Source of the DNA: Desulfatiglandales bacterium | Lineage (GTDB): Bacteria; Desulfobacterota; DSM-4660; Desulfatiglandales; Desulfatiglandaceae | NCBI GenBank assembly: GCA_963662465.1 | Contig: OY759599.1 | Location: forward strand, 1,312,001 to 1,376,000 | Length of the DNA: 64,000 bases | Direction: 5' to 3' | Translations under genes and position numbers: made by a program | In this document: in pieces, positions 22,597 to 47,232 of the stretch | How the letters are laid out: every line of letters begins with the position of its first letter | Position numbering within the stretch: the stretch's first letter is position 1 | Notes under the pieces: generated by a model | What the model saw: only the letters and a program-made list of their open reading frames with translations | Told to the model about the DNA's origin: nothing | The model's database searches: none

Positions 22597-23694
22597 ATGA
22601 ACATATCTTGCACAAAATGCTTTACGACAATTCTGCTTGAAGGTCCCATTGCTCCGACCGGTTCAAAAGTGACATGTGCGGGGTGCGGGTCAGCGTTTAC
22701 GATCTATCCTTCAAAAACTGTTATCGGCGACTTCGTAAAATATGTCATGAACAATTCTGATATTTCGGCAAGGGCTTGTTCAATGATCCGGGGTCATGTT
22801 CGTGATGTGGATATTTTCTTACGATCATCGCGAAAGGATTTCCTCGGATTCCGGAATTGTGGTCAAAAAATAACCAGTGAATTGATCAAATTTCAGCGTG
22901 AACTGAGAAAAAAACTGGATTACGGCGCAGGGCAAAATGAATCTGAAGATGAAATCGTCGAAAGCCATCATAAGGCCGTCATCGCGTTCCTTTCAAGAGA
23001 CGTATTTTTCAAAGAGGTCCTTGACTCCAAATTATCGCAGGCTTATTTCAAAGCGCTGCGGCACCACGGAATCGATACCCTGGAAAAAGTTTTGGCCCTG
23101 AGCTATCAAGATGTGCTTCGAATTAAGCACGTTGGGCGTAAGACCCTGCGCCTGTTTCGTGGGTTTCAAGAGATCTGCTCTGAAATTGTAAAGACCATTG
23201 TCGATTCGGAAGTGCTTCGTTTCAAAGATTTCAAATGGGTGGTGAGACAGGATCAAACGATTCGAAATATCCTCTCCCACGGAAAAAATATGGATGTGGA
23301 TGCTCCTTTTTTTTCCCTGTCTCAATGGATACTGGAAAACAGCCGGCATTCTGAACGAAACAGGGATGTATTTATGTGCCGAATGGGGATGTTGGGTGAG
23401 CCCGGGATGACGTATGATAATATCGGTATAAGGTATAATATTTCAAAAGGACGCGTCCAGCAGATCATCCTGAAAGTACAATCCAATGGACGTCGTCCCC
23501 TCCAGAGAATAAGGCTTGATCCTTTGATCGCAAAGGCAGCCGAAATTGTAAAAACCGGCGGAGGAAAAACAGGGCTCTCGGAATTAACCGAATCCTTGTT
23601 GAATTGCGGGCCTCAAGGCGAGCTCCTGAAACATGCGGAACCCTTTGTTGACTATTTGAAATCCTTCCCTGAATGGGAAGAAGTCATGAGATGA
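22597..23694 (+). CDS. Zn-ribbon / 2x RNAP alpha-CTD-like / sigma70 region 4 protein, copy 1
   Basis: CTKC-x18-CAGC; SARACSM..RNCGQK and GIDTLEKVL..KHVGRKT HhH repeats; SERNRDVF..MTYDNIG..ISKGRVQQI HTH; RBS GAGGA. Confidence 0.75.
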   Translation: MNISCTKCFTTILLEGPIAPTGSKVTCAGCGSAFTIYPSKTVIGDFVKYVMNNSDISARACSMIRGHVRDVDIFLRSSRKDFLGFRNCGQKITSELIKFQRELRKKLDYGAGQNESEDEIVESHHKAVIAFLSRDVFFKEVLDSKLSQAYFKALRHHGIDTLEKVLALSYQDVLRIKHVGRKTLRLFRGFQEICSEIVKTIVDSEVLRFKDFKWVVRQDQTIRNILSHGKNMDVDAPFFSLSQWILENSRHSERNRDVFMCRMGMLGEPGMTYDNIGIRYNISKGRVQQIILKVQSNGRRPLQRIRLDPLIAKAAEIVKTGGGKTGLSELTESLLNCGPQGELLKHAEPFVDYLKSFPEWEEVMR

Positions 23695-23700
23695 TTGAGG

Positions 23701-23718
23701 GTCAAGACTTTGATTGAC
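23701..23718. repeat. Junction hairpin GTCAAGWCTTTGATTGAC; copies at 26552, 35079, 48423, partial at 27746 and 47266
   Basis: GTCAA/TTGAC inverted arms preceded by G-runs, located at module boundaries. Confidence 0.75.
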
Positions 23719-23871
23719 TTGTTTTGCAGCCCTAACACGAATGAGGCGGGGGAAGTCAAAGTGCCGGCCGATATCGCCAACAGGCAATACGCGATCGAGG
23801 TTCAGAGGCTTGTGAACATCCAGGTTCCTAATCCAAGTACAGGAGATGCGTGAATGGTCGGAAGAAAAACA

Positions 23872-24026
23872 GGCTCATCGTGGATTCGCGTGAGATTTGG
23901 CTTCTGAGCCGATTGTAGGTGCGACTTCAGTCGCACATTAAGCCGACCCTGTGCGACTGAAGTCGCACCTACAGCCCGAACCGAAACAATTTCAAAGCGC
24001 GATTTCACGTTAATCCGCGATGAACC
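23872..24026. mobile_element. 155-bp MITE with 8-bp TSD carrying a REP doublet
   Basis: GAAAAACA duplicated at 23864-71 and 24027-34, single in the paralogues at 26705 and 48576; imperfect 25-bp TIRs; internal perfect inverted 24-mers at 23914-37 and 23950-73. Confidence 0.85.
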
Positions 24027-24395
24027 GAAAAACAAAACCATCGACTGAAATCGAAACGATTGAATTCGCCATTGAGGACGCATTGAGACCCGGTGACTTT
24101 ATTGAGTATGATTTTAGCTGGTCTTTCACATCCGGTCTTGAAGAGGTCAGAAGTATCATCGAAAACTTCACCATCAGGGAACCCGTTCGCGGCATTGGTC
24201 TAATCGAGACATTTATCGCTGCCTGTTATGAGAAAGCGGATGAGATCGATGACTCCAGCGGATCATTCGGCGATTTTGTTGAAGCGCTGTTTTGTTCCTG
24301 GGTCAATGCCAGACAACGCGCGGACTGTACGGCGAAGGAAACCGTTGATCGCCTTCTTGCGTGGATCGATAACGACGACTACGGTTTTACTTACT
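24020..24395 (+). pseudogene. DUF6880-like protein, copy 1 (3'-truncated)
   Basis: Matches the 26705 and 48576 copies up to YGFTY, then unrelated sequence. Confidence 0.7.
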
Positions 24396-24561
24396 TGAGT
24401 TTTCGAAAAAAAGTAACGGACACGGTAGGAACACTGTTTTATTCGATCATGCGCTCAAAACAAACCTCAAAGCGACCTGTATCGTAGTCCTTTATTACAG
24501 CGATGGTGGAATAATCAAATTTCCCATTGCTCATCGAATCTATTACCAGGATAGCAATAAG

Positions 24562-24770
24562 ATGCTTTGGCAGAAAGGGAAAAAGCATATTTGCAAACCG
24601 AAATACGAATTGGCAATTGATATGTTTCAATGGGCTATCGACAGGGGTTTTCCCAGAGGCATCGTCCTTGCGGACTCCTGGTTCGGGAGCGGTCCATTTG
24701 TAAAAGGACTTAAAGGGTTAAAGTTGAGTTATGTTATTGAAATAAAGTCAACTTTAACCGTAAGAGAGAG
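24562..24770 (+). pseudogene. IS701-like DDE transposase fragment
   Basis: KPKYELAIDM..RGIVLADSWFG..LSYVIEIKS resembles the second-Asp region of IS701-type transposases. Confidence 0.55.
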
Positions 24771-25196
24771 GTTTGCGCTGTACCGTTTTTGTGCCGGACC
24801 GGGGGTGTTCTGGGCCCCAAAAAAACGCGGGCGCGAGGTCTGAGAGGGCGACATGGCAGCAGAATATTATGGTTTCCAAAGACATACCCCAAAAACCCGA
24901 TAATTGGACATCCTAATCCCTTTAACTTTAAATTAAATGCTTTATTTGTAACTATTTTAAGCAAATTGGATTAGGCGGCTCTGGCTATTGGCCGTACAAG
25001 GGAGCGCATTTGCTCAATATGGCCAGCCCTTACATGACCAAGGGCCATTGCCATCATTACGGCTGTGGCCAAGCAGATTAAGTGAGAATTTTCACATTAT
25101 TTGCGCGTAAAAAGTGTTATGGTCCACGAAAATTGCTTGTAATAAATGCTCTGGATCAATTTCCTGAGCCACGTCATTTTCAATAATCTGAAAACG

Positions 25197-25493
25197 CTAT
25201 ACGCCGTCCACGAAGAGATTCAAGCGTTTTTTTTCTTCATACACCTTTTCTGATAACAGTTCTCTGAGCAACGCCTGATAGGAAACCATCCCCTTTATCC
25301 TTGCCAGCCTGCGCAAATCATCTATGATGAACTCCGGAAGAGAAACCGAGGTCCTGAACATTTTCAGCTTCCCTCCATATTTGGGAACGACATTCATGGA
25401 TTTCCTGAAGGTTTCGGGCCTTTCAAGGTCAAAATCACTGAGTTCGTACTGCTCAGCATCATTTTCTCTCTTATTGTCTCGAGTATTTTTCAT
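25197..25493 (-). CDS. BrnA/CopG-like antitoxin
   Basis: TSVSLP..LARIKG..YQALLR C-terminal RHH; overlaps the toxin gene. Confidence 0.7.
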   Translation of the reverse strand: MKNTRDNKRENDAEQYELSDFDLERPETFRKSMNVVPKYGGKLKMFRTSVSLPEFIIDDLRRLARIKGMVSYQALLRELLSEKVYEEKKRLNLFVDGV

Positions 25494-25782
25494 AATTTTG
25501 CCTCTCATTTATTTTCATATCCCTCGCATGAATTGGTCGGGCAACTTCGCCGGACTTATGCTGAAATACGACGAAAAGATAGCGCCCACCAAAGGTCCGG
25601 CCTAATAACACACGGCGATCTGAGATTTTCTTATGAGGGAAAATAGTAAAAGGAGGATTATTAAAACACTGTTCAATTTCTTCCGCGGTTACCCCATGTT
25701 TTATTTCGTTTTTCCAGAGATTCCCCTCATCCCATTCTATGTATCGGTATCGCATATCCATGGCATAAAATGTACTTTCCAT
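25471..25782 (-). CDS. brnT: BrnT family toxin
   Basis: EWDEGN..KHGVT.EE, LGRTFGGRYLFVVF and RPIHARDM; start may be a downstream Met. Confidence 0.85.
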   Translation of the reverse strand: MESTFYAMDMRYRYIEWDEGNLWKNEIKHGVTAEEIEQCFNNPPFTIFPHKKISDRRVLLGRTFGGRYLFVVFQHKSGEVARPIHARDMKINERQNYEKYSRQ

Positions 25783-26126
25783 GGGGTATCAAGTCAAGGC
25801 TGATTTTGCAAACGGGAAGCCCTTGAAATTCTATAAATGAAAGATGCGCCATCAGGCATCTGCCGAATGATCCCAGACATCTGATCACTCCCAAAGATGA
25901 GCATGGATCAGTAACGATAGACAAGTATCACCTCCAGGCCCAAAATACTGCCAATTATTTCTATTGAACCGCAAGCCCATTTTGGCTATGCTCACCGCCG
26001 AAAAAAATGTCTTATCATTTCACCAAAGGAAAAGAAGGAGGAAAGGTGATGGCACGTGGGGTTTACTGGGGAAATTCGGCCTGCGGGATTGTGTCACTCT
26101 TGACTTTTCAAGAAAGAGGCGTTTGT

Positions 26127-26516
26127 ATGACAAAAAGATTTATGGCAGTGGCTTGTTGGTCTTTGATCTTTCCCGCTTTTCTTATGCTAATGGGTTGTAG
26201 CAGCGATTCCGGCGCCGAACCGGACAGAATATTCATCCATTTTTTTGTGGCGCCGCAATACATGCCGGACGGGACCTCCTCGGAGGAACAGATCCAGGCC
26301 CTTCGGCTTTGGCTGGCACGGGAAGCGGGGGGCTACACGGAATTTAAGGAAGCCCCGGGAGGCTGGATCGATGGGGCGGGAAATCTGCAGACCGAGGAGC
26401 AAGTGGCTTTTCTGGTATCGGCTCCCGCGAATCTCAAGGAAGCGATCCGCCAATATATGAGCCGGAACTTCGGACAAAGTCTCCCATACGTGGTGGTGTG
26501 GGAAAGCCTCCCGTGA
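26127..26516 (+). CDS. Putative lipoprotein (DUF3574-like)
   Basis: Lipobox LMGC; GGYT...GGWID pattern; RBS GAGG. Confidence 0.55.
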   Translation: MTKRFMAVACWSLIFPAFLMLMGCSSDSGAEPDRIFIHFFVAPQYMPDGTSSEEQIQALRLWLAREAGGYTEFKEAPGGWIDGAGNLQTEEQVAFLVSAPANLKEAIRQYMSRNFGQSLPYVVVWESLP

Positions 26517-26704
26517 ACGGAGTTCCGGGGACACCATACTTATGCTTGACGGTCAAGTCTTTGATTGACTTGTTTTGCCGCCCTGACACGAATGAGGCGG
26601 GCGAAGTCAAAGCGCCGGCCGATATCGCCAACAGGCAATACGCGATCGAGGTTCAGAGGCTTGTGAACATCCAGGTTCCTAATCCAAGTGCAGGAGATGC
26701 GTGA

Positions 26705-27732
26705 ATGGTCGGAAGAAAAACAAAACCATCGACTGAAATCGAAACGATTGAATTCGCCATTGAGGACGCATTGAGACCCGGTGACTTTATTGAGTATGAT
26801 TTTAGCTGGTCTTTCACATCCGGTCTTGAAGAGGTCCGAAGTATCATCGAAAACTTCACCATCAGGGAACCCGTTCGCGGCATTGATCTAATCGAGACAT
26901 TTATCGCTGCTTGTTATGAGAAAGCGGATGAGATCGATGACTCCAGCGGATCATTCGGCGATTTTGTTGAAGCGCTGTTTTGTTCCTGGGTCAATGCCAG
27001 ACAACGCGCGGACTGTGCGGCGAAGGAAACCGTTGATCGCCTTCTTGCGTGGATCGATAACAACGACTACGGTTTTACTTACAACCTGGAAAAAGAGGTT
27101 CCCCGGTTTCTCAACGAAGCGGGTTTGGAAGAATTTACGGCGGCCATCCGTGCGCGCTATGAAGCTGAAATGAAGAAAGAGCATCATCGAAGTCTCTGGG
27201 GCGGAACCCTCAAAAGTATTTATGCCGCCGGCGGTGACTTCGATGCATATCTCTCAATCTGCAATGAGACGGAACTTCTGCCTGTGGATTGCGAAACCCT
27301 GGCGGAAATGCGCCTTTCACATGGAAACCCGGCAGAAGCGCTGAAATGGGTGGAAAAGGGTCTTGAAATCGAGAGCAATACTCAGGTGTACCGGGGGTCA
27401 AGCTATAAACTGGTCACGCGGAAATACTCGTCGAAGCCCACCCGGACGTGGCGGGGACGCTTTATCAGGCCATGGGACTGCGGATCGTCAATGCCAAAAA
27501 GAGCCGGTATTACAGCGCTGCCCTGTCTAATTTTAAACACGCGAAGCATTGCTACGAAAAGGCCGGTCTCAAAACAGCCTGGCTTGAACTGGTTGAAGAC
27601 GTTAAAGCCAGGCATTCCAGAAAATACAGTTTCATGCCGGGATTTGAACAGGTGGTTGAGGGGAAAGGTCCGGATACCAAACCATCGTTTATGGATTTGG
27701 CAAAAAAACGGGCAGGGAAAAACAGGCTCTGA
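26705..27732 (+). pseudogene. DUF6880-like protein, copy 2 (internal deletion/frameshift near 27418)
   Basis: N-terminal part matches copy 3 up to YKLVT; C-terminal part (YQAMGLRIVNAKKSRYY..HSRKYSFM) lies in another frame. Confidence 0.75.
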
Positions 27733-27906
27733 ATTCGGCCCGGGGGTCTTTGATTGACTTGTTCCTGCCGCCTTGATGGCAATGAACCAGGGGGGGGAAT
27801 ACCTGTTTTTTTGTCTTGGCCCGGACTGGCCGGACTGCGACTGTTTACTCCCGAACAGATGGAGAGCGGGGTTTTGTATACAAGATGGTTACCCCCGGTA
27901 TGAATT

Positions 27907-28323
27907 TCAAACGGAAGCCCCAGAGGGGTTGGCTTGAATCACATTATGTGCAGCATGTACAAGAAATGAGGACCGTGACATACCCCTCTTTTTTGCGGCA
28001 GCATCGATTTGCCTGAGCGTCATTTCGGGCAGGGTGATATTGACACGGACAGTTCGGGGTTTTGACTCGGGACCCGTAACAACAAGGAAAGCGGTGGCAT
28101 CCGCATAGTCGGGATCGTTCATAATTTCTTCAAGTTTAGAAGAAAATGGCAATTTGTCACCGTCTTCGAACATTCCCTGAATATGAAAGGTGAGGGCCTC
28201 CTCGGCCATATCCTTTGCTTCATCGATGTTTTTCCCAGCGGTAATGCAACCGGGAAAATCAGGAAATGAAACGCTGAAATCGCTTTTGGAATCTTTGTGA
28301 ACGACGGCGATATAATTTGACAT
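27907..28323 (-). CDS. hicB: HicB antitoxin, copy 1
   Basis: VSFPDFPGCITAG and RVNITLP..MSRSSFL. Confidence 0.9.
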   Translation of the reverse strand: MSNYIAVVHKDSKSDFSVSFPDFPGCITAGKNIDEAKDMAEEALTFHIQGMFEDGDKLPFSSKLEEIMNDPDYADATAFLVVTGPESKPRTVRVNITLPEMTLRQIDAAAKKRGMSRSSFLVHAAHNVIQANPSGASV

Positions 28324-28332
28324 GGGAAAACC

Positions 28333-28496
28333 TCAATTGAACTTGATACCCGATTGGCGTTCGATACTCTTTAATGTGCCAATGTGTATGTCCCTTTTTG
28401 GATGTGGAACCGTTACGCGCCCCTTTATATCAGGATGTCGAAATTGGGTGTGAGAACCGGATGTTGCGACTCTAATCCATCCGTTTTTCGTTGAGA
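28333..28496 (-). pseudogene. hicA: HicA toxin, 5'-truncated
   Basis: Matches 38275-38437 but lacks the start codon and promoter; 1-nt indel at the junction. Confidence 0.75.
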
Positions 28497-28528
28497 TTTA
28501 CAACTAGATGATATGGTTTCGTTTTTTC

Positions 28529-28566
28529 ACTTAAAACTTAAAACTTAAAACCTAAAACTTAAAACC
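28529..28566. repeat. (ACTTAAA)n heptamer tandem repeat
   Basis: About 5.5 units directly before a REP-A copy. Confidence 0.8.
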
Positions 28567-28668
28567 TTTCCTCGTTCCCACGCAGAGCATGGGAACGGGT
28601 GCAATACAAAAAAGTTTCATAGAACAAAACGTGATCATTTCCGTAGAACAATCACCAGGCCGCCAACT

Positions 28669-28750
28669 GGGCAGACACACAGGTCTGCCCCGACCCACCC
28701 CCATCTTTTGATTCACGATATGCCCGTAGGGGCGGACCTATGTGTCCGCC
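28669..28750. repeat. GTAG-type REP doublet (GTAGGGGCGGACCTATGTGTCCGCC); related pair at 52444-52548, partial at 38512
   Basis: Two inverted GGGCRGAC..GTCYGCCC palindromes. Confidence 0.75.
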
Positions 28751-28767
28751 TTTTATGCCTGCCTGCA

Positions 28768-29088
28768 TCACTTTTTTTGCACCCCATGGGAACGAGCCCA
28801 CAAAACAATCAAAGTGTAAATTACAAAATGAAAGATGCCAAATTTTTCTATTTTCAACAACTGCCTGGTTAGCGTTTTTTCATTAATAGCGCCTTCTTCG
28901 AGATCATAAATGAATTCAGGCTGATTGAGCCACTCTTCCAGGTGGGCCTGAAGCAGCATAAGATTTCCTGTCTTCTCCTTGTATGACTCCGCGGCTTTAA
29001 AATAGCGCCACTTCTCCGCCATGAGCTTCTCAATCTGCTTAAGCTCCTTGTTTACCCTCGGTTTTCTTGGATCTTTCCAGACATGCAT
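28768..29088 (-). CDS. Hypothetical protein
   Basis: 106-aa ORF with a C-terminal hydrophobic stretch; no family recognised. Confidence 0.4.
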   Translation of the reverse strand: MHVWKDPRKPRVNKELKQIEKLMAEKWRYFKAAESYKEKTGNLMLLQAHLEEWLNQPEFIYDLEEGAINEKTLTRQLLKIEKFGIFHFVIYTLIVLWARSHGVQKK

Positions 29089-29307
29089 TCATTCTAATGC
29101 AATCGATTTATTAATTAATGCAAGATTTTCCACTTTGTGGGGGTATGGGGACATAGGGGTTGATGCTGAAGTCATGGTCGTCCGGCGCCCCCACAAAGGC
29201 GGCTGGTTAACAAGCGTATCTTTAAGCAATCCACAGGCGTTATCCGATGGTATCTCCCAGGCGGACTACGGATTGACGCTTCCTGTGTCTTTTGGTATGT
29301 TGCCGGC

Positions 29308-29480
29308 ATGCCTAGACAAGCCCGAATTGATGTGTCAGGTGTTCTCCACCACATCATTGTCAGGCTGATTGAGCGAAACAGGACCTTTCAGGATGATCTG
29401 GACAGGGATGATTTCCTGAACGTACTGGGCCATATATTGCCTGAATTCAGGACCGGATGCTACGTGTGGGCATTGCTTGA
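29308..29480 (+). pseudogene. Y1/RAYT transposase 5' fragment
   Basis: MPRQARIDVSGVLHHIIVR..CYVWAL is homologous to the 44868 gene; it stops just before the HUH motif. Confidence 0.8.
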
Positions 29481-29588
29481 GGATTTTACGAGCCATTCTG
29501 CTTGTGATTTGACGTTAACTATAAATAGAATATCTTAGCGTAACCCAACGGTCGGCAGAGGCGTTGGTGAGCTTAACGGTGACAACAT

Positions 29589-30650
29589 ATGATGAAATTG
29601 AGTGATATGGGTTTCGACCAAGGGTTTCAATTGCATGTCGGTGACTTGTGTCAAGAGGACCGGGATATTGCGCGTATATCGGCAGTTGACCGCGGCGCAT
29701 ACCGCATCAGAAATCAAACCAGGGAAGTCCCGGCTGAACTCGCCGGGAAGTTCTATTTCCAGGTAGACGCTTCGATTGACCTGCCGTGTGTCGGCGATTG
29801 GGTGACAGTGCAATATCACAACAACGACGCCGCGGCAATTATTCATGAGGTGTTTCCGAGAAAGACGTTTTTACGCCGCAAATCCGCCGGTGAAAAGGTG
29901 GATTTCCAGATGATTGCGGCCAACATTGACGTCGCTTTCATTGTCCAGTCGTGCCACTTTGACTTCAACGTGCGGAGAATGGATCGGTACCTGGTGATGG
30001 CGGCAGACGGGGGTGTTGAACCGATTATTGTTCTTACCAAGACGGACTTGATTGCCCCTGAAGAACTGGAACGGAAGCTTGCCGCCATTACGTCGAGGAC
30101 CATTACAGCCGGAGTCCTTCCCCTCAGCAATGTCACGGGCATCGGATTTGACGAATTCCAGCAGGTGTTAGTCTCGGGAAAAACATATTGTCTGCTCGGT
30201 TCATCGGGGGTTGGCAAAACAACACTCCTCAACCGTCTGATCGGGCAAGACGCTTTTGACACAAAGGCCGTTAGTGGAACGGGAGAAGGCATACATACCA
30301 CTACGCGCCGCCAGCTTATCGTTCTTAATCAAGGTTCCATGCTGATTGATACGCCTGGAATGCGAGAACTGGGTCTTCTCGGTGTAAGCGAAGGGGTCAA
30401 CCAGGGTTTTGATGACATTGTTCAGCTTTCCCTGAATTGTCGCTATCCGAATTGTGGCCACACGCGGGAACCCGGCTGTGCGGTCCGAGCCGCGTTAACG
30501 AGCGGTGCATTGGCCGAAGATCGCTATTCAAGCTATAAAAAGCTCAAGAATGAGTCGGAGTACCATGAGCTGTCGTACCTGGAAAAACGGAAGAAGGATA
30601 GAGCATTCGGACGCTTCATCAAATCTGCAAAGAAGCAAATGAAGGTCTGA
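29589..30650 (+). CDS. rsgA: Ribosome small subunit-dependent GTPase A
   Basis: VGDWV, AANID, TKTD, GSSGVGKTT, HTTT, DTPG and C-terminal CRYPNCGH..EPGC zinc site. Confidence 0.92.
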   Translation: MMKLSDMGFDQGFQLHVGDLCQEDRDIARISAVDRGAYRIRNQTREVPAELAGKFYFQVDASIDLPCVGDWVTVQYHNNDAAAIIHEVFPRKTFLRRKSAGEKVDFQMIAANIDVAFIVQSCHFDFNVRRMDRYLVMAADGGVEPIIVLTKTDLIAPEELERKLAAITSRTITAGVLPLSNVTGIGFDEFQQVLVSGKTYCLLGSSGVGKTTLLNRLIGQDAFDTKAVSGTGEGIHTTTRRQLIVLNQGSMLIDTPGMRELGLLGVSEGVNQGFDDIVQLSLNCRYPNCGHTREPGCAVRAALTSGALAEDRYSSYKKLKNESEYHELSYLEKRKKDRAFGRFIKSAKKQMKV

Positions 30651-30766
30651 AATGGGCACGGAACTACTTGATGTATCCGACTTCCCGCAGTCGCGGTTCA
30701 TCACGGCGTTGGATTGATAGACAAGCAGGATGAAGTCCCTGCCCATAGCTCATCGCTCATCGCCTG

Positions 30767-30882
30767 TTTTCATGGTAAACCCTCATGACAAGGGTTTTGC
30801 CACTCCCGTGCATGAAAATAACATCTACCGCTTTTAAGCTAACGGCTAACGGCTAACGGCTAACCGCTAATAGCTAACGGCT
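30767..30882. repeat. TTTTCATG...CATGAAAA element plus (GCTAACG)n heptamer array
   Basis: 54-bp inverted-end element at 30767-30820 (related sequence at 36601-36641) and six GCTAAC/TN units at 30838-30882. Confidence 0.65.
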
Positions 30883-31096
30883 GTATTTTCATGGTAAGAA
30901 GCGTGTTGGAGATTAAACGTGAGAAATGGGCAACACGGAGAGCATATACCGATGGCACATGCATTATATAGGCTAACGATCAAACCAAACAAAAAACATG
31001 ACACGAACTCACCGGGAACGTCTTGTCAAAAACGGCTTCATCATAGCCCGCTATTGTTTATGTCACTCCTCGCTATTCAAGATAATGACCCCATAT

Positions 31097-38463: not shown

Positions 38464-38465
38464 GA

Positions 38466-38500
38466 TGTGTAATAATACACACTTTAGAATGATCTGTCAA
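38466..38500 (-). promoter_or_regulatory. hicAB promoter/operator, probably leaderless transcript
   Basis: TTGACA-17-TATTAT, 8 nt before the ATG; palindrome TGTGTA-N4-TACACA over the -10 box. Confidence 0.7.
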
Positions 38501-38954
38501 TTCTGAGGAACAGGGGCAGACCTGTGTGTCGACATGCCTGGACAAGCTTGAATCGATGCGCCGGCGGTTCTCCACCATCCCTCTTTCCGCCCTCCCTTTT
38601 TCCTTCCTTCCGCCGAACAGCGAAAAAAATCGCATGAAATAAAAAATCCTGACCGGTAAAAAAAAATAAATCACTGAAATTTCGAAACAAATTTCAAAAC
38701 AATAGATATAAATTATATGGTTTTCTATGATGTTTACTCATGGTTTAAAGATTTGACATCCGCAATGATTTCGGGTTAGTTTATCCAACTGTTCCGTCCC
38801 CTTGTTATTACCTGGCCGCTCTGCGTCCATCTTTCTTCAGGTTTACCCGGTCCTGGATTTGCGTTACCTGTTTCAGTTGCTGTGAATTCACGGGAGTAAA
38901 GTGGGGATTCTCCCGTTCCAATGCGCCGTATGGGAATTGAAAAGTAGGCCGATC

Positions 38955-40052
38955 ATGGACATATATTGCATAAAATGCTTTACGATCATTCGGTTTGAAG
39001 GTGCGATTGCCCCGACCGGTTCAAAAGTGAAATGCTCCGGGTGCGGGTCAACGTTTACGATCTATCCTTCAAAAACCGTTATAAGCGACTTTTGGGCCTA
39101 TGTGATTGTCAATTCTGATATTTCGGTAAGGGCTTGTTCAATGATTCGGAGTCATGTCCGTGATGTGGATGTTTTCTTGCGATCATCTCGGGAGGATTTC
39201 CTTGGATTACGGAACTGTGGTCTCAAAACAGCCAATGAATTGATCCGATTTCAGCGTGAACTGCGGAAAAAACTGGGTTACGGCACGGAGAAAAATGATT
39301 CTGAAGACGAAATCAGTGAAACCCATAAAAAGGCCGTTATCGCGTTTCTTTCAAGAGACAAATTCTTCAAGGAGGTTTTTGATTCCCAATTATCACATCC
39401 TTTTTTCGAACCGCTGCGACGCCGCGGAATTGATACCCTCGAAAAAATTCTGGTTTTGAGATATGAAGATGCGCTTCGAATTAAGCACGTTGGGGGTAAT
39501 ACCTTGCGGTTGTTTCGGGGGCTTCAAGAGATCTGCTCTGAAATTGTAACGATCCTTGCCGATTCGGAAGCGCTTTGTTTCAAAGATTTCAAATGGGTGG
39601 TGAGTCAGGATCAAACGATTCGGGATGTTCTTTCCTGTGGAAAAAACATTGATGTGGATGCCCCTTTTTCTTCCCTGTCTAAATGGGTGTTGGAAAACAG
39701 CTGGGGTTCTGAACGAAACAGGGATGTATTCATGTGCCGAATGGGGATGTTGGGTGGGCCGGGGATGACGTATGATAATATCGGTATACGGTATGATATT
39801 ACACTGGAGCGCGTCCGGCATATTGTCATAAAAATACAACTAAACGGACGACATCCTCTCCAGAGAATAAGGCTTGATCCATTGATCGCCAAAGCCGTCG
39901 ACATTGTGAAAGCCGGCGGAGGAAAAACCGGGCTTTCTGAATTAACCGAAAGATTGCTGAATTGTGGACCTCAAGGCGAGCTCCTGAAACATGCGGAACG
40001 ATTTGTTGAATATCTGAAATCCTTCCCTGAATGGGAAGAAGCCATGGGATGA
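38955..40052 (+). CDS. Zn-ribbon / 2x alpha-CTD-like / sigma4 protein, copy 2
   Basis: Colinear but more diverged paralogue of 22597; LERVRHI HTH. Confidence 0.75.
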   Translation: MDIYCIKCFTIIRFEGAIAPTGSKVKCSGCGSTFTIYPSKTVISDFWAYVIVNSDISVRACSMIRSHVRDVDVFLRSSREDFLGLRNCGLKTANELIRFQRELRKKLGYGTEKNDSEDEISETHKKAVIAFLSRDKFFKEVFDSQLSHPFFEPLRRRGIDTLEKILVLRYEDALRIKHVGGNTLRLFRGLQEICSEIVTILADSEALCFKDFKWVVSQDQTIRDVLSCGKNIDVDAPFSSLSKWVLENSWGSERNRDVFMCRMGMLGGPGMTYDNIGIRYDITLERVRHIVIKIQLNGRHPLQRIRLDPLIAKAVDIVKAGGGKTGLSELTERLLNCGPQGELLKHAERFVEYLKSFPEWEEAMG

Positions 40053-40136
40053 TAAAGACCCGTGACGTCTGGAGGTTCTGAGGGTGTTTTTTTTGCGTCA
40101 ACATTGGCTTATTTTCACAATGACAGGAGGGGCGAA

Positions 40137-40288
40137 TGGGACGTACGTCAGATTATAAGTTAATCATTCATTGCATGATATTAAGCAAACATACCGCACA
40201 AAACTCGCATGGAGTAGCACAGAAGGCTGCCAATTGTGGGGAAAGAACCAAAGGCCTTTCGGAAACTTATAATCTGACGAACGTCCCC
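40137..40288. mobile_element. 152-bp non-autonomous derivative of the RAYT element
   Basis: Ends TGGGACGTACGTCAGATTATAAGTT and AACTTATAATCTGACGAACGTCCCC (23/25 inverted match), the same as the ends of 44810-45888. Confidence 0.8.
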
Positions 40289-40646
40289 AAGGTTCCCCAC
40301 GGCATCACCGTGTCCCTGCTGGCCTTTGGGGTCTTCTACATTCGACGCTTTGGCCTCCTTTACGTGGGGCTTGGACTGTACACCCTGTTCATTTACATGT
40401 TCGGGACCATTGTGGCAAATGGCCGATCCCTTTAATGGCTTTAACCACCAATTCAAAAGAAAAGAAGTATGTGATTGACAGAATTCAGCCTTTGAATAAC
40501 TCTGATTCTTCTACGGGACCGAAAAAAGGCCGGTGCAAGGGGCATTGCCCAAGTCCTGGGGCTGACGTCGCGTGCCGTTGAAAAACATAATATAGGTATG
40601 CAATTCAAGGATGACGCTTTGGTATTGCATTGACAATATTACGATC

Positions 40647-40690
40647 TAACCCAATATTGTCTTGACAATATTGGGTTACGCTTTTATATT
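40647..40690 (+). promoter_or_regulatory. Perfect 15-bp inverted repeat overlapping a sigma70 promoter
   Basis: TAACCCAATATTGTC-TT-GACAATATTGGGTTA; TTGACA(40662)-17-TATATT, 7 nt before ATG 40698. Confidence 0.65.
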
Positions 40691-40697
40691 GTCGAAT

Positions 40698-41918
40698 ATG
40701 GAAATTGAAAGAGCATTATACCAAAATATCTGGGACAAGCTTTCCGCACATAAACAAATGGTTTTTATTGCCGGGCCGCGGCAGGCCGGCAAAACCACTT
40801 TTACGCGGATTCTGGCCGAAGATTTCATGAATTCGCTCTATTTCAACTGGGATATCATTGAGGATAAACGAAACCTGATTGAAAACCCCTCCTTTTATGA
40901 AGAAGTTCATCGTAGCGATAATACCGTTCCACTCATTATATTTGATGAGTTGCACAAATATTCAAACTGGAAAAATTATCTAAAAAGTGTCTACGATCGC
41001 GATAAAAGCAACTATACATTCGTCGTATCCGGCAGCGGCAGGCTTGATATGTACCAAAAAGGAGGAGATTCCCTGGCCGGTCGGTATTTTCTTTTTTACC
41101 TGTGGCCGTTTACCCTTGCAGAACTTGCGGGAAATAATCTTACCTTTGAACAATTTCTGGCCAATCCCATTGAAGTTCGCGCTGCGCCTAATGAAACAAT
41201 AACCATCTGGAATAAACTGACTCGTTTTTCCGGATTCCCCGATCCGTACCTTGATGGAACAAATGAGTTCTACCGGATCTGGTCAAACACTTATAAGAAG
41301 CAGCTCTTGCGGGAAGATATTCGTGATCTCGCATCACTTCGCAACATTGAGGCTGTGGAAATTCTTTTTTCTTTGCTCCCTTCCAAAATCGGCAGTCCAC
41401 TTTCAATGGCAAGCCTTTCCAGAGATATTAATGTGTCATTTGACAGTGTTCGGAGCTGGATCGAGATTTTTGAGAACTTTTTCCTGGTATTCAGAATAGC
41501 GCCATGGAGCGGGAAAATATCGAGGGCCATAACCAAGGAGAAAAAACTGTATCTCTTCGATTACGCGGGGATTGATTCCCCGGGGGCAAAATTTGAAAAT
41601 ATGGTTGCTCTGGAATTGTTCCGGGCGGTTTCGAACTGGAATGATCTCGGGCTTGGGAATTTTGCATTGCATTATATCCGAAATCGGGAGAAGGAAGAGG
41701 TTGATTTCCTGATTTCCAACAACCACACGCCTCTCATTCTCATCGAAACCAAACGATCCGATGATCATGTATCCAAAAGCCTAAGGAAATTTCAAAAGGT
41801 ACTCAATATCCCGGCGGTCCAGCTGGTCAACAGAAACAATGTCTGTAAAATAGTCTCTAACAATAACCTGCGAATCATGATCATCAGCGCGGATCACTGG
41901 CTGTCATTGCTGCCGTAA
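40698..41918 (+). CDS. AAA+ ATPase with DUF4143 domain
   Basis: GPRQAGKTT, FDELH, SLAGR, KKLYLFD and EVDF..IETK. Confidence 0.9.
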   Translation: MEIERALYQNIWDKLSAHKQMVFIAGPRQAGKTTFTRILAEDFMNSLYFNWDIIEDKRNLIENPSFYEEVHRSDNTVPLIIFDELHKYSNWKNYLKSVYDRDKSNYTFVVSGSGRLDMYQKGGDSLAGRYFLFYLWPFTLAELAGNNLTFEQFLANPIEVRAAPNETITIWNKLTRFSGFPDPYLDGTNEFYRIWSNTYKKQLLREDIRDLASLRNIEAVEILFSLLPSKIGSPLSMASLSRDINVSFDSVRSWIEIFENFFLVFRIAPWSGKISRAITKEKKLYLFDYAGIDSPGAKFENMVALELFRAVSNWNDLGLGNFALHYIRNREKEEVDFLISNNHTPLILIETKRSDDHVSKSLRKFQKVLNIPAVQLVNRNNVCKIVSNNNLRIMIISADHWLSLLP

Positions 41919-42145
41919 TCGGTTTCTGATGTGTTGTCAAAACGATGAAATTGCAGTATCGACTTTTTCAAAACCGTGCAGAACAAAATACACTTTTTAT
42001 CCGGACTTAGAAGACCATGAAGACCCAACGGAGATCGATGCCACCTTAAATACCATGCTTGATGAACTCGTTGTCGAACCCGAGACGATTGCCTGTGATA
42101 AATTTAGCTGATTCGAACAACTGATATCCGGAAAGGAATATCCTT

Positions 42146-43648
42146 ATGAAAAGACATATCAATATTATCGGTGCGGGGATCGCTGGTTTGTCTGCCGGGT
42201 GCTATTTGCAGATGAACGGCTATGAAACCCAGATCTTTGAGTTGCACAATTTGCCAGGTGGGCTTTGTACCGCCTGGAAGCGCAAAGACTATACCTTTGA
42301 CGGATGTCTTCACTGGCTGGTCGGGTCGAGTCCCAGGGATAAGTTTTATCAGCTCTGGAACGAATTGATCGATATGGAAAAATTGAAATTTGTCGATCAT
42401 GAATATTACATCAAAGTGGAAGACAAAACCGGCAAGTCAATGACTGTTTTTTGTGATGTGGACCGGATGGAAACCGAAATGCTTGAAAAAGCGCCGGAAG
42501 ATCGGGTTGTTATTGAAGAATTTGTAACCGGAGTGCGAAAGTTGATGAATTTTCGGTTGCCGATTGAAAAGGCGCCTGAAATATACAATTTGCTTGATTT
42601 TATAAAGATGATGGTGAGCATGCTCCCTTATATGGGTGAAATGAAAAAATGGGTCGGTATCAGTGCCACGGAGTTCGCCGGGCGATGTCGCAATGAATTG
42701 CTTCGTAAAACATTTTTATACATGTTCTGGCCGACCATGAATGTCTTGTTTTTGGTGCTGACCCTGGTTTGGATGAATAAGAAAAGCGCTGGGTATCCTA
42801 TTGGCGGATCACTGAATTTTGCCAAACTGATCGAAAAAAAATACCTGGCATTGGGTGGTAAAATCAACTATAAATCCAGGGTGATGCGCGTGATCGTTGA
42901 AAATGGAACCGCCAAAGGGCTTGTTTTGCAAAACCGGCAAACCTATCCCGCTGATATTGTCATTTCCGCTGCAGATGGTCATGATACGATTTTTAATATG
43001 CTCGACGGAAAATATCTAAACGGTAAGATTGAATCATATTACCAGGATTACGAAGTTTTTCCCTCTTATATCCAAGTATCGTTGGGCATTGCCAAAGCAC
43101 TGGAAGACCTGCCGCATATGGTCGTGTTTCCCTTGCAAACGCCATTGTATATCGATGACACTATTACTTATGATGATATCAATATTCGTGTGTTTAACTT
43201 TGATCCAACCATGGCCCCGGAAGGCAAAACTGTGGTCACAAGTATGCTGTCCACGGCAAACTACAAACATTGGAGACATTTAAAAAAGCAGCAGCCAGAA
43301 ATCTATAAGGCCGAAAAAAAGCGCATTGCAGACGCTATTGTCGAAGCTTTAGACAAAAAATACGGTGGTATTAAAGACCACGTGGAAGCAGTCGATGTGT
43401 CGACCCCATCGACGGTTATCCGGTATACCAATAACTGGCAGGGCAGTTTTGAGGGATGGGTCTGGACACCTAAAATCGGATTTTCGAAAATGAAAAAAGA
43501 ACTGCCCGGTTTAAATAATTTTTACATGATCGGCCAGTGGGTTGAACCGGGTGGGGGAGTGCCGCCGGCATTGATGTCCGGCCGGGGAGTGGCTCAGATC
43601 ATTTGTAAACGTGACCACAAACGGTTTAAAGTTTTGTCAGCGGTTTGA
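42146..43648 (+). CDS. Phytoene dehydrogenase-like FAD-dependent oxidoreductase
   Basis: IIGAGIAGL, PGGLC.AW.R..Y.FDG and GQWVEPGGGVP. Confidence 0.85.
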   Translation: MKRHINIIGAGIAGLSAGCYLQMNGYETQIFELHNLPGGLCTAWKRKDYTFDGCLHWLVGSSPRDKFYQLWNELIDMEKLKFVDHEYYIKVEDKTGKSMTVFCDVDRMETEMLEKAPEDRVVIEEFVTGVRKLMNFRLPIEKAPEIYNLLDFIKMMVSMLPYMGEMKKWVGISATEFAGRCRNELLRKTFLYMFWPTMNVLFLVLTLVWMNKKSAGYPIGGSLNFAKLIEKKYLALGGKINYKSRVMRVIVENGTAKGLVLQNRQTYPADIVISAADGHDTIFNMLDGKYLNGKIESYYQDYEVFPSYIQVSLGIAKALEDLPHMVVFPLQTPLYIDDTITYDDINIRVFNFDPTMAPEGKTVVTSMLSTANYKHWRHLKKQQPEIYKAEKKRIADAIVEALDKKYGGIKDHVEAVDVSTPSTVIRYTNNWQGSFEGWVWTPKIGFSKMKKELPGLNNFYMIGQWVEPGGGVPPALMSGRGVAQIICKRDHKRFKVLSAV

Positions 43649-43960
43649 TAAGGTGATGTGTTGCAATATTTGTAACCGTTCACGGTTGCCGGTTCACGGT
43701 TTTTCAATGAATTATGGGTTTCCTTCATACAGATTTACACTTTCCTGATGAATCGTTTTTTCAATTTTAATGAAGGATGCGGAATTATGTTGGGATTGAT
43801 AACCGCAATTTTTTAAATCTTCACAAGAGGACCCCATAGTCTTCCGTTATCCTCTGTTTTTCAACCGTAAACCGGCATAACGGGTATGATCGCCGATTGT
43901 AAGAAAGCGATTCAATGCCGGGAGCATACCGAATGTCGTTGAAGAAGCGCAGCAGTGCGT

Positions 43961-44473
43961 TTACAAAAAATCAATGTTGATTAAGGTGGAAAGATGATTG
44001 AATTCTTCCCGTATGATTTCTTTCAATAATTTGTTCATTTCATTGTCCTCAATGATGTTTGCCAGTCCCGCATAAAAAACGATACTGTCTTTTTCAAATC
44101 CTATGGCCATGCGAATCACGTCGCCTGTTTCCTCACTTCCGGTGACGACGTGATTGAGGATGAAATCAAAATCAAAAATCCGGGAATCCTGAACGGCACT
44201 CGCATACTTGGAGATAGACTGCCAGGTGGTCGCCTGGATCGGGGTCTTGATACGGTTTTCGTATGTTAACCGCAGATCTGAAAAAAAATCCTCATGTTTA
44301 AGCTCGTTGGTTGCCATTTTTTGAAGCACCAGAAATGCTTCTTCATCCGTAACGTTTTTGGAGATCTGGAAATAGAATCCTGCTGTGGCATGTTCAACCT
44401 TTGCGGCCATGTTCAGCAAACTCGATACGATCTCATTGGCATCTATCATGTTACTCTTCTTAAATAGCGCCAT
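43961..44473 (-). CDS. Ferritin-like/rubrerythrin family protein
   Basis: E..FY, ELKH, EKDSIVFY and EEFNH di-iron motifs. Confidence 0.8.
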   Translation of the reverse strand: MALFKKSNMIDANEIVSSLLNMAAKVEHATAGFYFQISKNVTDEEAFLVLQKMATNELKHEDFFSDLRLTYENRIKTPIQATTWQSISKYASAVQDSRIFDFDFILNHVVTGSEETGDVIRMAIGFEKDSIVFYAGLANIIEDNEMNKLLKEIIREEFNHLSTLINIDFL

Positions 44474-44809
44474 TGCAGCCTCCGCGATTTTTTTTACCTA
44501 AAAGCAGCAATCAGCTTTTGAGCTATTAGCCGTTAGGTTAATGACATAACTGATAACTGCGACTCCGACGCCTTAGCCTATTTTCATCGTTCGCAAAATG
44601 CAATAGGATTTATAAGCGTAATTCTCATTTTGGGAGCATTGGAAGAAGGTTGGTCGCTGACCGGGAACGCTGCTTGATGATTTGAGGATGTTTTTCTATA
44701 AACGCCATACTCAAAAAAACTTGACTCTCAAGTGAGTTCATGTAAAAGAAAATTTTCCCATGCGCATCTTATTTGAACTGCTGTATCGCCAAACGGGGTA
44801 ACGAGAAAA

Positions 44810-45888
44810 GGAAACGTTCGTCAGATTATAAGTTGCGGTTTAATTTTTCATTTGATAGCGTGTTTGCATGCCGAGAAAAGCCCGCATAGATGCCCCAGGA
44901 GCGCTTCACCATGTTATTGCCAGGGGGATCGGCCGTCGAAAAGTGTTTGATGATGATGACGACCGAGATTTTTTTGTTGAACGGCTGGGGCAAATTGTTT
45001 CTGATACGGAAACACACTGTTTTGCGTGGGCGCTGATGCCCAATCATTTCCATTTGCTTTTGAAAACCGGCATTATCCCTGTCTCTACGGTCATGAAACG
45101 CCTCTTAACCGGTTACGCCATGCACTATAACCGGAGACACAAGCGGTATGGCCATCTGTTTCAAAACCGATACAAGTCAATCCTCTGCCAGGAAGATTCA
45201 TATCTATTGGAACTGACTCGCTATGTGCATTTGAACCCGCTTCGGGCAAAATTGGTATCTGATCTAAAGGAGTTGTGCAACCATCCTTACAGCGGGCATA
45301 GCGTACTTATGGGGAGGGTAACCGCGGAGTGGCAGAACACGACAATCCTCGGGTTGTTTGGCGACAAGGTGTCCGTTGCGCGGCGGCGATACCTGGAATT
45401 TGTAAAAAAGGGGATAGCTGCCGGTAAGCGGCAAGATCTCACGGGTGGGGGACTGGTTCGGAGCGTTGGGGGGTGGTCCGCCGTGAAGTCATTGCGGAAG
45501 GCCGGCGTATTTCAGAAGGGGGATGAGCGTATCCTTGGCGATGGTGAATTTGTGGAGAAGGCGCTCTCTCAAGCCGAGGAGGCATTCGCGAGGAAATATC
45601 GCTTGAAGGCCAAGGGGGTTGATGTCGGCAGGATTGCCGAGAGAGTTGCCGACATTATGGGCATGGCCCCCGAAGTGGTTTGGGCCTCGGGAAAACAGCC
45701 TAAGATTGTGCAGGCCCGCAGCCTTCTTTGCTACTGGGCGACCGGTGAATTGGGCGTTAGCCAGGCGTGGTTAAGCCGGAAACTGGGGATTTCCCAGGCA
45801 GCGGTAAGCCTTTCGGTAAGCAGAGGACGTCGGATTGCATTAGAAAATCACTATGAGATTGGGAACTTATAAACTGACGAACGTCCCC
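44810..45888 (+). mobile_element. TIR-flanked Y1/RAYT HUH transposase element
   Basis: 25-bp inverted ends (22/25) at 44810-34 and 45864-88; the transposase stop codon lies inside the right end. Confidence 0.8.
44868..45872 (+). CDS. REP-associated tyrosine transposase (Y1_Tnp) with C-terminal HTH
   Basis: HHVIARG, LMPNHFHLL (HUH), FQNRYKS, YVHLNP (catalytic Tyr) and a DnaA_C-like HTH. Confidence 0.9.
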   Translation: MPRKARIDAPGALHHVIARGIGRRKVFDDDDDRDFFVERLGQIVSDTETHCFAWALMPNHFHLLLKTGIIPVSTVMKRLLTGYAMHYNRRHKRYGHLFQNRYKSILCQEDSYLLELTRYVHLNPLRAKLVSDLKELCNHPYSGHSVLMGRVTAEWQNTTILGLFGDKVSVARRRYLEFVKKGIAAGKRQDLTGGGLVRSVGGWSAVKSLRKAGVFQKGDERILGDGEFVEKALSQAEEAFARKYRLKAKGVDVGRIAERVADIMGMAPEVVWASGKQPKIVQARSLLCYWATGELGVSQAWLSRKLGISQAAVSLSVSRGRRIALENHYEIGNL

Positions 45889-46134
45889 TAGTCCTCCTCG
45901 TTCCCATGCTCCGCGTGGGAACGGACAACGGAGGCTCCGCGTCCGTTCAGGGGGCGGCGGTCGAGGCCAGGGCAAAGGCGGAGGTTCCGGCGCCAAAGAC
46001 GGTACAAGCACCCCGGAACGCCCCCAGGACGGCACAGGCTACGGCGCCTGTTTCAACTGCTGTGAATTCACTGCAATAAAATGGAGACTTTCCCGTTCCA
46101 ATGCGCCATATGGGAATTGAAAAGTATACCGATC

Positions 46135-47232
46135 ATGAACCTATGTTGCACAAAATGCTTTACGACAATTCTGCTTGAAGGTCCCATTGCTCCGACCGGT
46201 TCAAAAGTGACATGTGCGGGGTGCGGGTCAGCGTTTACGATCTATCCTTCAAAAACCGTTATCGGCGACTTCGTAAAATATGTCATGAACAATTCTTATA
46301 TTTCGGCAAGGGCTTGTTCAATGATTCGAAATTATGTTCGTGATGTGGATGTTTTTTTGCGATTATCGCGAAAGGATTTCCTCGGATTTCGGAACTGTGG
46401 TCAAAAAATAACCAGTGAATTGATGAAATTTCAGCGTGAACTGAGAAAAGAACTGGATTACGACGCAGGGCAAAATGAATCTGAAGATGAAATCGTCCAA
46501 AGCAATCATAAGGCCGTCATCGCGTTCCTTTCAAGAGACGTATTTTTCAAAGAGGTCCTTGACTCCGAATTATCGCAGGCTTATTTCAAAGCGCTGCGGC
46601 ACTGCGGAATCGATACCCTGGAAAAAGTTTTGGCCCTGAGCGATCAAGATGCGCTTCGAATTAATCACGTTGGGCGTAAGACCCTGCGCCTGTTCCGTGG
46701 GCTTCAAGAGATCTGCTCTGAAATTGTAAAGGCCATTGTCCATTCGGAAGCGCTTCGTTTCAAAGATTTCAAATGGGTGGTGAGACAGGATCAAACGATT
46801 CGAAATATCCTCTCCCGCGGAAAAAATATGGATGTGGATGCTCCTTTTTCTTCCCTGTCTCAATGGATACTGGAAAACAGCTGGTATTCTGAACGAAACA
46901 GGGATGTATTCATGTGCCGAATGAGGATGTTGGGTGAGCCCGGGATGACGTATGATAATATCGGTATAAGGTATAATATTTCAAGAGGACGCGTACAGCA
47001 GATCATCCTGAAAGTACAATCCAATGGACGTCGTCCCCTCCAGAGAATAAGGCTTGATCCTTTGATCGCAAAGGCAGCCGAAATTGTAAAAACCGGCGGA
47101 GGAAAAACAGGGCTCTCGGAATTAACCGAATCCTTATTGAATTGTGGGCCTCAAGGCGAGCGCCTGAAAAATGCGGAACCCTTTGTTGAATATCTGAAAT
47201 CCTTCCCAGAATGGGAAGAAGCCATGAGGTGA
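46135..47232 (+). CDS. Zn-ribbon / 2x alpha-CTD-like / sigma4 protein, copy 3
   Basis: Close paralogue of copy 1; reading frame intact. Confidence 0.75.
   Translation: MNLCCTKCFTTILLEGPIAPTGSKVTCAGCGSAFTIYPSKTVIGDFVKYVMNNSYISARACSMIRNYVRDVDVFLRLSRKDFLGFRNCGQKITSELMKFQRELRKELDYDAGQNESEDEIVQSNHKAVIAFLSRDVFFKEVLDSELSQAYFKALRHCGIDTLEKVLALSDQDALRINHVGRKTLRLFRGLQEICSEIVKAIVHSEALRFKDFKWVVRQDQTIRNILSRGKNMDVDAPFSSLSQWILENSWYSERNRDVFMCRMRMLGEPGMTYDNIGIRYNISRGRVQQIILKVQSNGRRPLQRIRLDPLIAKAAEIVKTGGGKTGLSELTESLLNCGPQGERLKNAEPFVEYLKSFPEWEEAMR

Follow-up and report, generated by a model that had tools for sequence, protein, structure and literature searches.

Bacterial proteins that fuse the C-terminal domain of the RNA polymerase alpha subunit (alpha-CTD) with region 4 of sigma factors (sigma4) and with HARE-HTH or winged helices were reportedly described, on computational grounds, by Aravind and Iyer in 2012. 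Here we analyse a 365-residue relative of these proteins that is encoded by three intact open reading frames (ORFs; copies A, B and C) and a remnant (D) in a stretch of 64,000 nucleotides, hereafter the window (G000:C1:1312001-1376000; contig OY759599.1), of the 8.16-Mb single-contig genome G000 of a Desulfatiglandales bacterium. Like the proteins of the described type it has tandem alpha-CTDs, a sigma4 and the first winged helix, carries no enzyme domain and stands in a defence or restriction-modification neighbourhood. In contrast to them, it has neither a C-terminal HARE-HTH nor any further winged helix in its ORF, its only winged helix lacks the wing, it starts with a zinc (Zn) ribbon, and it stands alone and in several copies. 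We regard the short Zn-ribbon form as a variant of an already described protein type, and as a minimal object for testing it. Our preferred reading, to which we would give a probability of about one half, is that it is an orphaned, non-catalytic reader of UP- and -35-like DNA and, by prediction, a modulator of transcription.

The other systems that resemble it do so only in part. The PbeABCD systems are CxC ABC-ATPase-DndE systems with an HKD-SF2 helicase, and the available part of their description (PMC10853773) mentions no alpha-CTD/sigma4 subunit; the closest long relatives of our protein for which there is genomic context head such operons, whereas the window gene lies outside any. In the PglW protein of type 2 BREX, according to PMC12839542, winged-helix modules come after a helical domain of the alpha-CTD-like kind, and these are read there as a DNA-binding or sensory part. 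The window protein gives weak matches to PglW profiles (PDLC02512, E 9e-4; NF033442, E 1e-3 to 4e-3), but the score is 15 bits against a cut-off of 990; PglW, with NERD, tandem kinases and iSTAND, is 1400-1600 residues long, our protein has none of these parts, and no BREX genes lie beside the three copies. The Mza defence system includes a sigma70-family protein, MzaA (NF041931), which has a similar sigma4-like helix-turn-helix and gives weak matches (E 1e-4 to 2e-2), but only its sigma4 matches, at 14-21 bits against a cut-off of 800, and no Mza genes are nearby. The folds match those of region 4 of group 1 sigma70 factors and of the RpoA C-terminal domain, with about a quarter of the residues identical to the host's own domains (13/47 for its alpha-CTD, 14/58 for its sigma4). 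No functional test of the alpha-CTD plus sigma4 head, or of the short Zn-ribbon form, was found in the literature, as represented by main texts and few subscription papers.

The original prediction for this locus, made from the sequence alone, was of three intact paralogues of about 365 residues and a remnant, fusing a Zn ribbon, two alpha-CTDs and a sigma4. The three ORFs are indeed there, and the remnant has an in-frame internal deletion; the four domain calls hold in profiles (the Zn ribbon below cut-off) and in an AlphaFold2 model, but a fifth module, the wingless winged helix, had been missed. Among the profiles, Pfam Sigma70_r4 (PF04545, residues 252-291) is over its cut-off in all three copies, and further matches are to region 4 of SigA/RpoD, the homology to group 1 sigma4 extending through the R-H-P motif. 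Pfam RNA_pol_A_CTD (PF03118, residues 145-184) scores 25.5 bits in A against a cut-off of 23.8 and is under it in B and C. NCBIfam alpha profiles match at 55-113 (in B) and 141-185, the former supporting the first alpha-CTD. The Zn ribbon is below every threshold: Pfam Zn_ribbon_4 is under its cut-off in A and B and unlisted for C, and the MJ0042-type zinc finger profiles (TIGR02098/PF13717) give 16-28 bits, below their cut-offs of 20.9 and 30.3. All four of its cysteines (CxxC-x(17-18)-CxxC type) are present in every full-length short form, and it has four strands in the predicted model. That model, built on a 47-row alignment, has a mean predicted local distance difference test score (pLDDT) of 93.7 over the whole chain; residues 40-105 match the alpha-CTD 1z3e_B (Z 7.3, root-mean-square deviation (rmsd) 2.6, 63 aligned), and there is a match to the sigma4 of 7vpd_F (Z 7.8, rmsd 1.9, 76 aligned). 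SAM domains tie with these folds at similar Z, and Foldseek against the PDB gave no match at E <= 0.001. Since the Z values are middling, the domain assignment is carried by the sequence profiles. The last module is the winged helix that comes first in the long relatives, minus its wing: the chain ends five residues past a tryptophan aligned to W353 of the long protein P0021, just before strands 358-360 and 365-368. No enzyme or effector domain and no alpha N-terminal domain was found in the 365-residue protein, and of the sigma70 regions only region 4 matched (Pfam, NCBIfam and other profiles), with no match to regions 2 and 3; in a sigma factor, region 2 serves core binding and the melting of the -10 element.

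It is the long relatives that reveal where this protein comes from. A word-indexed search gave 11 relatives of 222-405 residues and none of 640-2000 residues, a weak negative as HMMER did find distant long ones: its search of 1.84 billion representatives gave 122 relatives, many of them of 860-1090 residues, in which the match is limited to the N-terminal third. Residues 43-362 of the query align to the N-terminal parts of 952-1036-residue proteins, and over its whole length the protein runs in parallel with the N-terminal portion of proteins of 690-1040 residues, at 25-33% identity. One of these, P0023 (688 residues, possibly incomplete), also starts with the Zn ribbon and stays collinear with our protein up to residue 362 (30%, E 2e-45). 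The long forms have from one to four alpha-CTD matches, mostly together with sigma4, and weak HARE-HTH matches occur in P0018 and in the relative from genome G093. The model of P0021 (952 residues), larger than the recommended size, has after sigma4 what look like some nine helix-plus-hairpin units; its fold search gave winged-helix matches (Z 9.0, rmsd 1.6, 62 aligned) as well as alpha-CTD and sigma4, and among the 50 matches listed those to enzymes span only single winged-helix-sized stretches.

In a tree of 47 rows, calculated from the second alpha-CTD to the end (rows with fewer than 170 residues there were excluded, and five genome loci added), the eight short Zn-ribbon rows make up a single clade (100/99) that lies within the long forms; its sister, unstarred, is P0023 (89/77). 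The tree has no fixed root, and its distant rows sit on long branches. There are also distant short forms that end just after the wing: the P0012 cluster, of 378-383 residues at 40% identity and from several assemblies, and P0161, of 382 residues at 31%, which was left out of the tree and has a cluster mate labelled Candidatus Magnetomorum. On the evidence of its sequence, the short protein is a truncated derivative of (alpha-CTD)n-sigma4-winged-helix-array proteins and not a full member of that type. The original prediction had counted truncation of a longer known protein as an outcome against it, and this is largely what we find, except that the truncation is an old and fixed one, as the nesting of the short clade among long forms and the short relatives at 31-40% identity indicate, and not a recent break. 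That the gene was frameshifted or split only recently was considered and rejected: the stop position is common to the close homologues, and the C-terminal array is found nowhere else in G000. From the tree we infer that an ancestor with an N-terminal Zn ribbon probably lost some eight winged helices from its C-terminal end and moved out of its operon.

Searches with long-form profiles of genome samples at the order, class and phylum levels gave any match in 5/174, 4/401, 5/194 and 1/24 genomes (counts that include G000 where it was searched), and in these samples there are no close long forms beyond those of genomes G254 and G446; most of the 68/105 family matches are RpoD region 4 and not the focal protein. 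A phage or plasmid origin was rejected: tblastn against 50,697 phage and 72,556 plasmid records gave no match. IMG/VR contains at least 8 short sigma4-type matches for the short form and none for the long form, the best match in BFVD has an E of 0.018, and the matches in the ESM Atlas, all below 0.9 and to be taken as leads only, include alpha-CTD plus sigma4 clusters of 314-975 residues. The head is also found fused to a class I methyltransferase (P0041), to Sel1 repeats (P0031, sigma4 part only) and to sigma region 1.1 (P0092).

With respect to neighbourhood, long and short forms keep different company. In both close long forms with context (G254 and G446, from 400 phylum genomes) the gene is the first of its operon and is followed by PbeA, PbeC, a small gene and a radical S-adenosylmethionine (radical-SAM) gene. 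Of the four distant long forms, three have informative neighbours: BrxP/SspC/BrxL-like in G093, HATPase/MORC-like in G023, and Dcm with Vsr in G293; the fourth, in G103, has no informative neighbour on its 4.3-kb contig. The neighbours of the short gene vary from locus to locus but are of the defence type: Mrr with two HNH nucleases (loci L002 and L003), a type IV-like helicase with toxin-antitoxin (TA) genes (L005) and DUF4062 (L004). In G000 and in G099, a genome of the same genus, the neighbour is DUF6880. The gene-neighbourhood survey that had been proposed thus gave no conserved partner or effector neighbour across G000, G099, L002, L004 and L005, and no conserved restriction-modification or defence operon around the short gene, only a defence-island setting. 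There are no Pbe genes in the window, and single-protein queries of G000 and G099 gave no PbeC and no full PbeA, the PbeA query of G000 yielding only a partial match to the HKD domain.

The radical-SAM-like genes that close the two long-form Pbe/CxC operons (L056 8909-10309; L057 8940-10382) are a component that the available part of the description of CxC systems (PMC10853773) does not list. The long form of G446 (L057 253-4179; 1308 residues) has in addition about 300 extra N-terminal residues without a Pfam family.

Copies A and C are 91.5% identical in amino acids, B is 74-76% identical to both, and C is 99% identical to the intact copy of G099. At the positions expected to touch DNA these proteins are uneven; R265 of alpha and the T-R-E-R-I-R-Q stretch of sigma4 are given with their E. 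coli numbering and DNA-contact roles. In the first alpha-CTD, the R265-equivalent arginine is present in 39/40 ungapped rows and the NCG-x-K hairpin is kept. In sigma4, the sigma70-like R/K-E-x-x-R-Q set is kept in 33/43 rows of the wider alignment, in the host RpoD, and in nine of the ten other close homologues, the exception being B's own cluster. The recognition helices read SKGRVQQI (A), TLERVRHI (B) and SRGRVQQI (C), just as first predicted: in A and C, G and Q replace E and the last R, and in B, L and H replace the first R and Q. We read these differences as departures from the family consensus, for which relaxation is no worse an explanation than a switch of specificity.

The rates, which are pairwise or whole-tree only, tell a similarly mixed story. 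Codon models of seven sequences gave an omega of 0.44 (GY) or 0.47 (MGK), and omega = 1 is rejected (twice the log-likelihood difference 71 and 64, respectively). The pairwise ratios of nonsynonymous to synonymous differences (pN/pS, uncorrected, kappa 2.5) are 0.52 for A/B and 0.55 for B/C (p < 0.001), and 0.31 for C against its G099 orthologue (11 changes, p 0.08). As controls, HicB gave 0.18, YitT 0.29 and MFS 0.33, and the broken DUF6880 genes 0.56-0.90. The dN/dS check proposed at the outset therefore comes out below 1 for the family as a whole, but not for every pair: selection is purifying but weak over the family, and A versus C is indistinguishable from neutral. We read this as birth-and-death turnover in which B and the A/C lineage were kept, C is still constrained and A looks neutral.

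Because it has no sigma regions 2-3 and no catalytic part, the simplest activity for such a protein is binding promoter-like DNA. Its order of domains, alpha-CTD, alpha-CTD, sigma4, would repeat the upstream footprint of the holoenzyme (distal UP, proximal UP, -35): the first alpha-CTD would bind A/T-rich, UP-like minor grooves, sigma4 would bind a -35-like hexamer, and the short protein would neither melt DNA nor catalyse anything. It would then occlude or modulate sigma70-type promoters, be they its own, those of the surrounding TA/defence island or those of incoming mobile DNA. The short gene travels as solo cargo in defence hot spots. Of the two functions originally proposed, a promoter-mimicking regulator or a decoy/sensor, the promoter-type DNA-binding regulator is the one that we retain.

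Several observations weigh against this reading. The full -35-reading set is kept in none of the three window copies; the second alpha-CTD is without the R265 equivalent in all seven rows of the close clade (it is kept in 32/42 ungapped rows); and the last domain has lost its wing. The pN/pS values of A/C (0.81, p 0.52) and of A against G099 (1.18, p 0.74) give no sign of constraint. A promoter scan found no sigma70 consensus promoter in the leader of A, and a palindrome that could be an operator does not precede the gene in L004, in L005 or in the second copy of G099. Finally, the sample of long-form neighbourhoods is small (two close, four distant).

The gene might instead be a decaying orphan that, without its array and Pbe partners, does little or nothing in this lineage and is passively copied in a hot spot rich in repetitive extragenic palindromic (REP) sequences. 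We consider this explanation unlikely, though the likeliest of the rivals. Of the 13 close copies with DNA context (L002 and L003 counted once) seven are intact and six broken, these being D, a fifth fragment E elsewhere in the genome (G000:C1:5116185), the second G099 copy, L006 and two fragments in G097. Intact copies are found in only 2/194 genomes of the class sample, the losses of the wing, of the second alpha-CTD arginine and of the recognition residues look stepwise, A appears neutral against both C and G099, and, as mentioned, of the Pbe partners only PbeA has any match in G000, a partial one to its HKD domain. On the other hand, omega is significantly below 1, C and its G099 orthologue differ at a pN/pS of only 0.31, the model is confident over the whole chain, and the short architecture has persisted across 31-40% identity with its four Zn cysteines and its end point. 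Two metatranscriptome runs of one study contain contigs that match copy C at 46326-46590 (one difference) and 46532-46765 (none), but contigs cannot show transcription and we have not used them as evidence.

A different target, RNA polymerase itself, seems improbable. Sigma4 would here dock on the beta flap and compete with sigma factors, or tether the core to UP-like DNA, so lowering or redirecting transcription. A predicted complex of residues 228-365 with host RpoB 872-1000 speaks for this, if weakly (0.45 against 0.01 for the best of three controls; runs agreed in at least 96% of contacts, with a partner pLDDT of at least 88), as does the R-H-P extension of the group 1 homology. The mark for such scores was reached by 116/157 solved and 2/215 mismatched pairs, and scores of 0.60 or less that reach it came from only 18 of the 157 solved pairs and from both mismatches. 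However, sigma4-beta-flap complexes have been solved many times, and likeness alone may account for the passing score; the protein is without sigma regions 2 and 3; and three copies of a protein that constantly competes for the core ought to burden the cell, but there is no conserved partner of the antitoxin kind.

A bolder version of promoter binding would have the protein, as an autonomous single chain, reproduce the UP/-35 footprint of the holoenzyme so as to silence the strong sigma70 promoters of phages or plasmids that enter the cell, or dock on the beta flap, the paralogues having switched recognition residues to cover different -35 classes; we find this rather doubtful. If it were true, a widespread defence module would have its minimal unit, free of any effector, in this protein, and promoter occlusion would be a new mode of defence.

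Phages are known to attack alpha-CTD and sigma4 with anti-sigma factors and with ADP-ribosyltransferases that modify alpha R265. That the protein is a decoy or sink for such attackers, its extra copies raising dosage and broadening the bait surfaces, would suit the defence-island setting, the three maintained copies, an evolution faster than that of its neighbours and the R265 equivalent kept in the first alpha-CTD, but it is unlikely for a protein so poorly matched to the host's own domains, with no effector domain or conserved effector neighbour, with family conservation concentrated on DNA-contacting motifs, and with parents whose long winged-helix array points to DNA reading.

Why, then, are there three copies? 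Self-comparison of the window reveals overlapping duplicated blocks (the focal gene with its spacer and DUF6880; HicAB; YitT), and G099 has the same blocks in another order. The neighbouring repeated genes had been described as broken, which is true of 3/3 DUF6880, 1/2 YitT and 1/2 HicA, but not of HicB, intact in both copies. The ORFs of A, B and C differ by 5-16% in DNA without an indel, whereas the three DUF6880 copies, only about 2% apart, are all broken; the gene that follows the intact G099 copy is an intact DUF6880 of 441 residues. In the module of copy C, a GNAT/TacA TA insertion (47444-48255, minus strand) splits the focal gene from its DUF6880. Of the two copies in G099, one is C-type and intact, and the other is B-type and breaks off after codon 177. 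Remnant D, with its ATG at 55141, has a deletion junction that joins MHRMGMLGE to LKHAQPF..., and its 3' part matches the last part of the gene in L006 at 90%. For B and C longer starts are listed, but the family does not share them, there being a stop in that frame in A and L002. The coordinates are collected in Table 1.

Table 1. Coordinates of the focal gene copies and of associated elements in the window (layout of copy A in residues).
Feature	Position	Strand	Remarks
Copy A, 365 residues	22597..23694	+	intact ORF
Copy B, 365 residues	38955..40052	+	intact ORF
Copy C, 365 residues	46135..47232	+	intact ORF
Remnant D	55141..55248	+	fourth paralogue with in-frame internal deletion
Domain layout of copy A	Zn ribbon 1-37; alpha-CTD1 40-107; alpha-CTD2 136-203; sigma region 4 233-300; wingless winged helix 301-365		
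Spacer and broken DUF6880, co-duplicated with focal gene	23695..24487	+	interrupted by 155-bp repeat (23872-24026) and insertion sequence (IS) fragment
Spacer and truncated DUF6880 of copy C module	48421..49526	+	
REP-associated tyrosine transposase (RAYT)-like gene upstream of C	44868..45872	+	NF047646, 67 bits (cut-off 80)
Intact REP hairpin upstream of A	22426..22448		group II intron landing site
Other intact REP hairpins	28574, 45900, 49879, 52875, 53424, 54943, 55994		
Leader of A	22456..22596	+	terminator-like hairpin at 22456-22470
Decayed REP hairpin before A	22557..22579		16/23 match; ends 17 nt before ATG
Leader of B	38814..38954	+	decayed REP hairpin 38915-38937 (18/23)
Leader of C	46047..46134	+	decayed REP hairpin 46095-46117 (17/23)
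20-bp imperfect palindrome, candidate operator	22519..22538		only before G000 copies and intact G099 copy

The 23-bp REP hairpin occurs eight times in the window (0.6 expected), upstream of A, C and D among others. REP-assisted duplication is known from enteric bacteria. The three copies would have arisen by segmental duplication in this REP-rich zone, possibly with the help of the REP elements, and the triplication looks mostly like a reflection of its neighbourhood, a local duplication under weak selection; it is of lower interest because many genes in this zone have been duplicated and broken. The predicted conserved leader of some 90-140 bp fares similarly. Upstream DNA is common to A and B over 140 bp and to A and C over 88 bp, but the leader is not family-wide: in L004, in L005 and in the second copy of G099 the homology reaches no further than 17-23 bp upstream of the ATG, and the 3' part of the leader is a decayed REP hairpin (among 2000 random windows a 16/23 match occurred six times, 22 once and 17-21 never). 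In L005 an intact hairpin lies close to this position, and in the leader of C the 5' end is joined to part of a Gly-rich (GQGKG-repeat) gene. The idea that the leader is a conserved regulatory element has therefore been largely rejected, although its 20-bp palindrome could be an operator.

A number of mobile or repeated elements adjoin the focal genes. The RAYT-like gene (44797-45895 in its repeated extent) has three near-full-length genomic copies (94-97%) and several internally deleted derivatives. A group II intron (20520-22450; reverse transcriptase 20612-21931, minus strand) sits at the edge of a REP hairpin and has 12 near-identical copies elsewhere in the genome. The 155-bp non-coding repeat, at the start of the DUF6880 gene, has an internal inverted repeat and more than 30 genomic copies of 92-99% identity, and looks like an active miniature inverted-repeat transposable element. 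DDE_5 IS fragments and a 310-bp repeat (about ten genomic copies) break DUF6880 at 24435-25075. A palindromic element of about 92 bp is found beside the focal family at four unrelated loci (window 55053-55143, L002 1232-1322, L006 478-570 and L001 17740-17825), and is the 5' truncation point of both remnant D and the L006 gene. The small Gly-rich protein, with a signal-peptide-like start, GQGKG and GSGQCDGSG repeats and no Pfam match, is a repeated neighbour of the focal gene, intact or as a fragment (55576-55982, 45930-46047, 52227-52290, L001 14657-15301 and L006 1434-1841).

The TA/defence neighbourhood originally predicted holds: the window is a hot spot with BrnT, HicB, MazF, GNAT, ParE, PIN, SoFic and DUF499. 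A UvrD helicase, a DUF499 ATPase and DUF7680 occupy 57099-63897 and, together with the following 20 kb (AbiD, a DUF1156-type methylase, a PLD-helicase, a HamB-like helicase and a type IV-like enzyme), make up a DUF499/Hma-like defence cluster. As to an integron array, no integrase lies nearby, the five integron-integrase matches over the cut-off all being at least 1.9 Mb from the window.

The alpha-CTD plus sigma4 head thus recurs in proteins linked to Pbe, to BREX/Ssp, to MORC and to methylases. A natural form of 365-380 residues, without the array and varying at the very residues that read DNA, is the simplest handle on what this head targets, whether promoter DNA, RNA polymerase or phage proteins.

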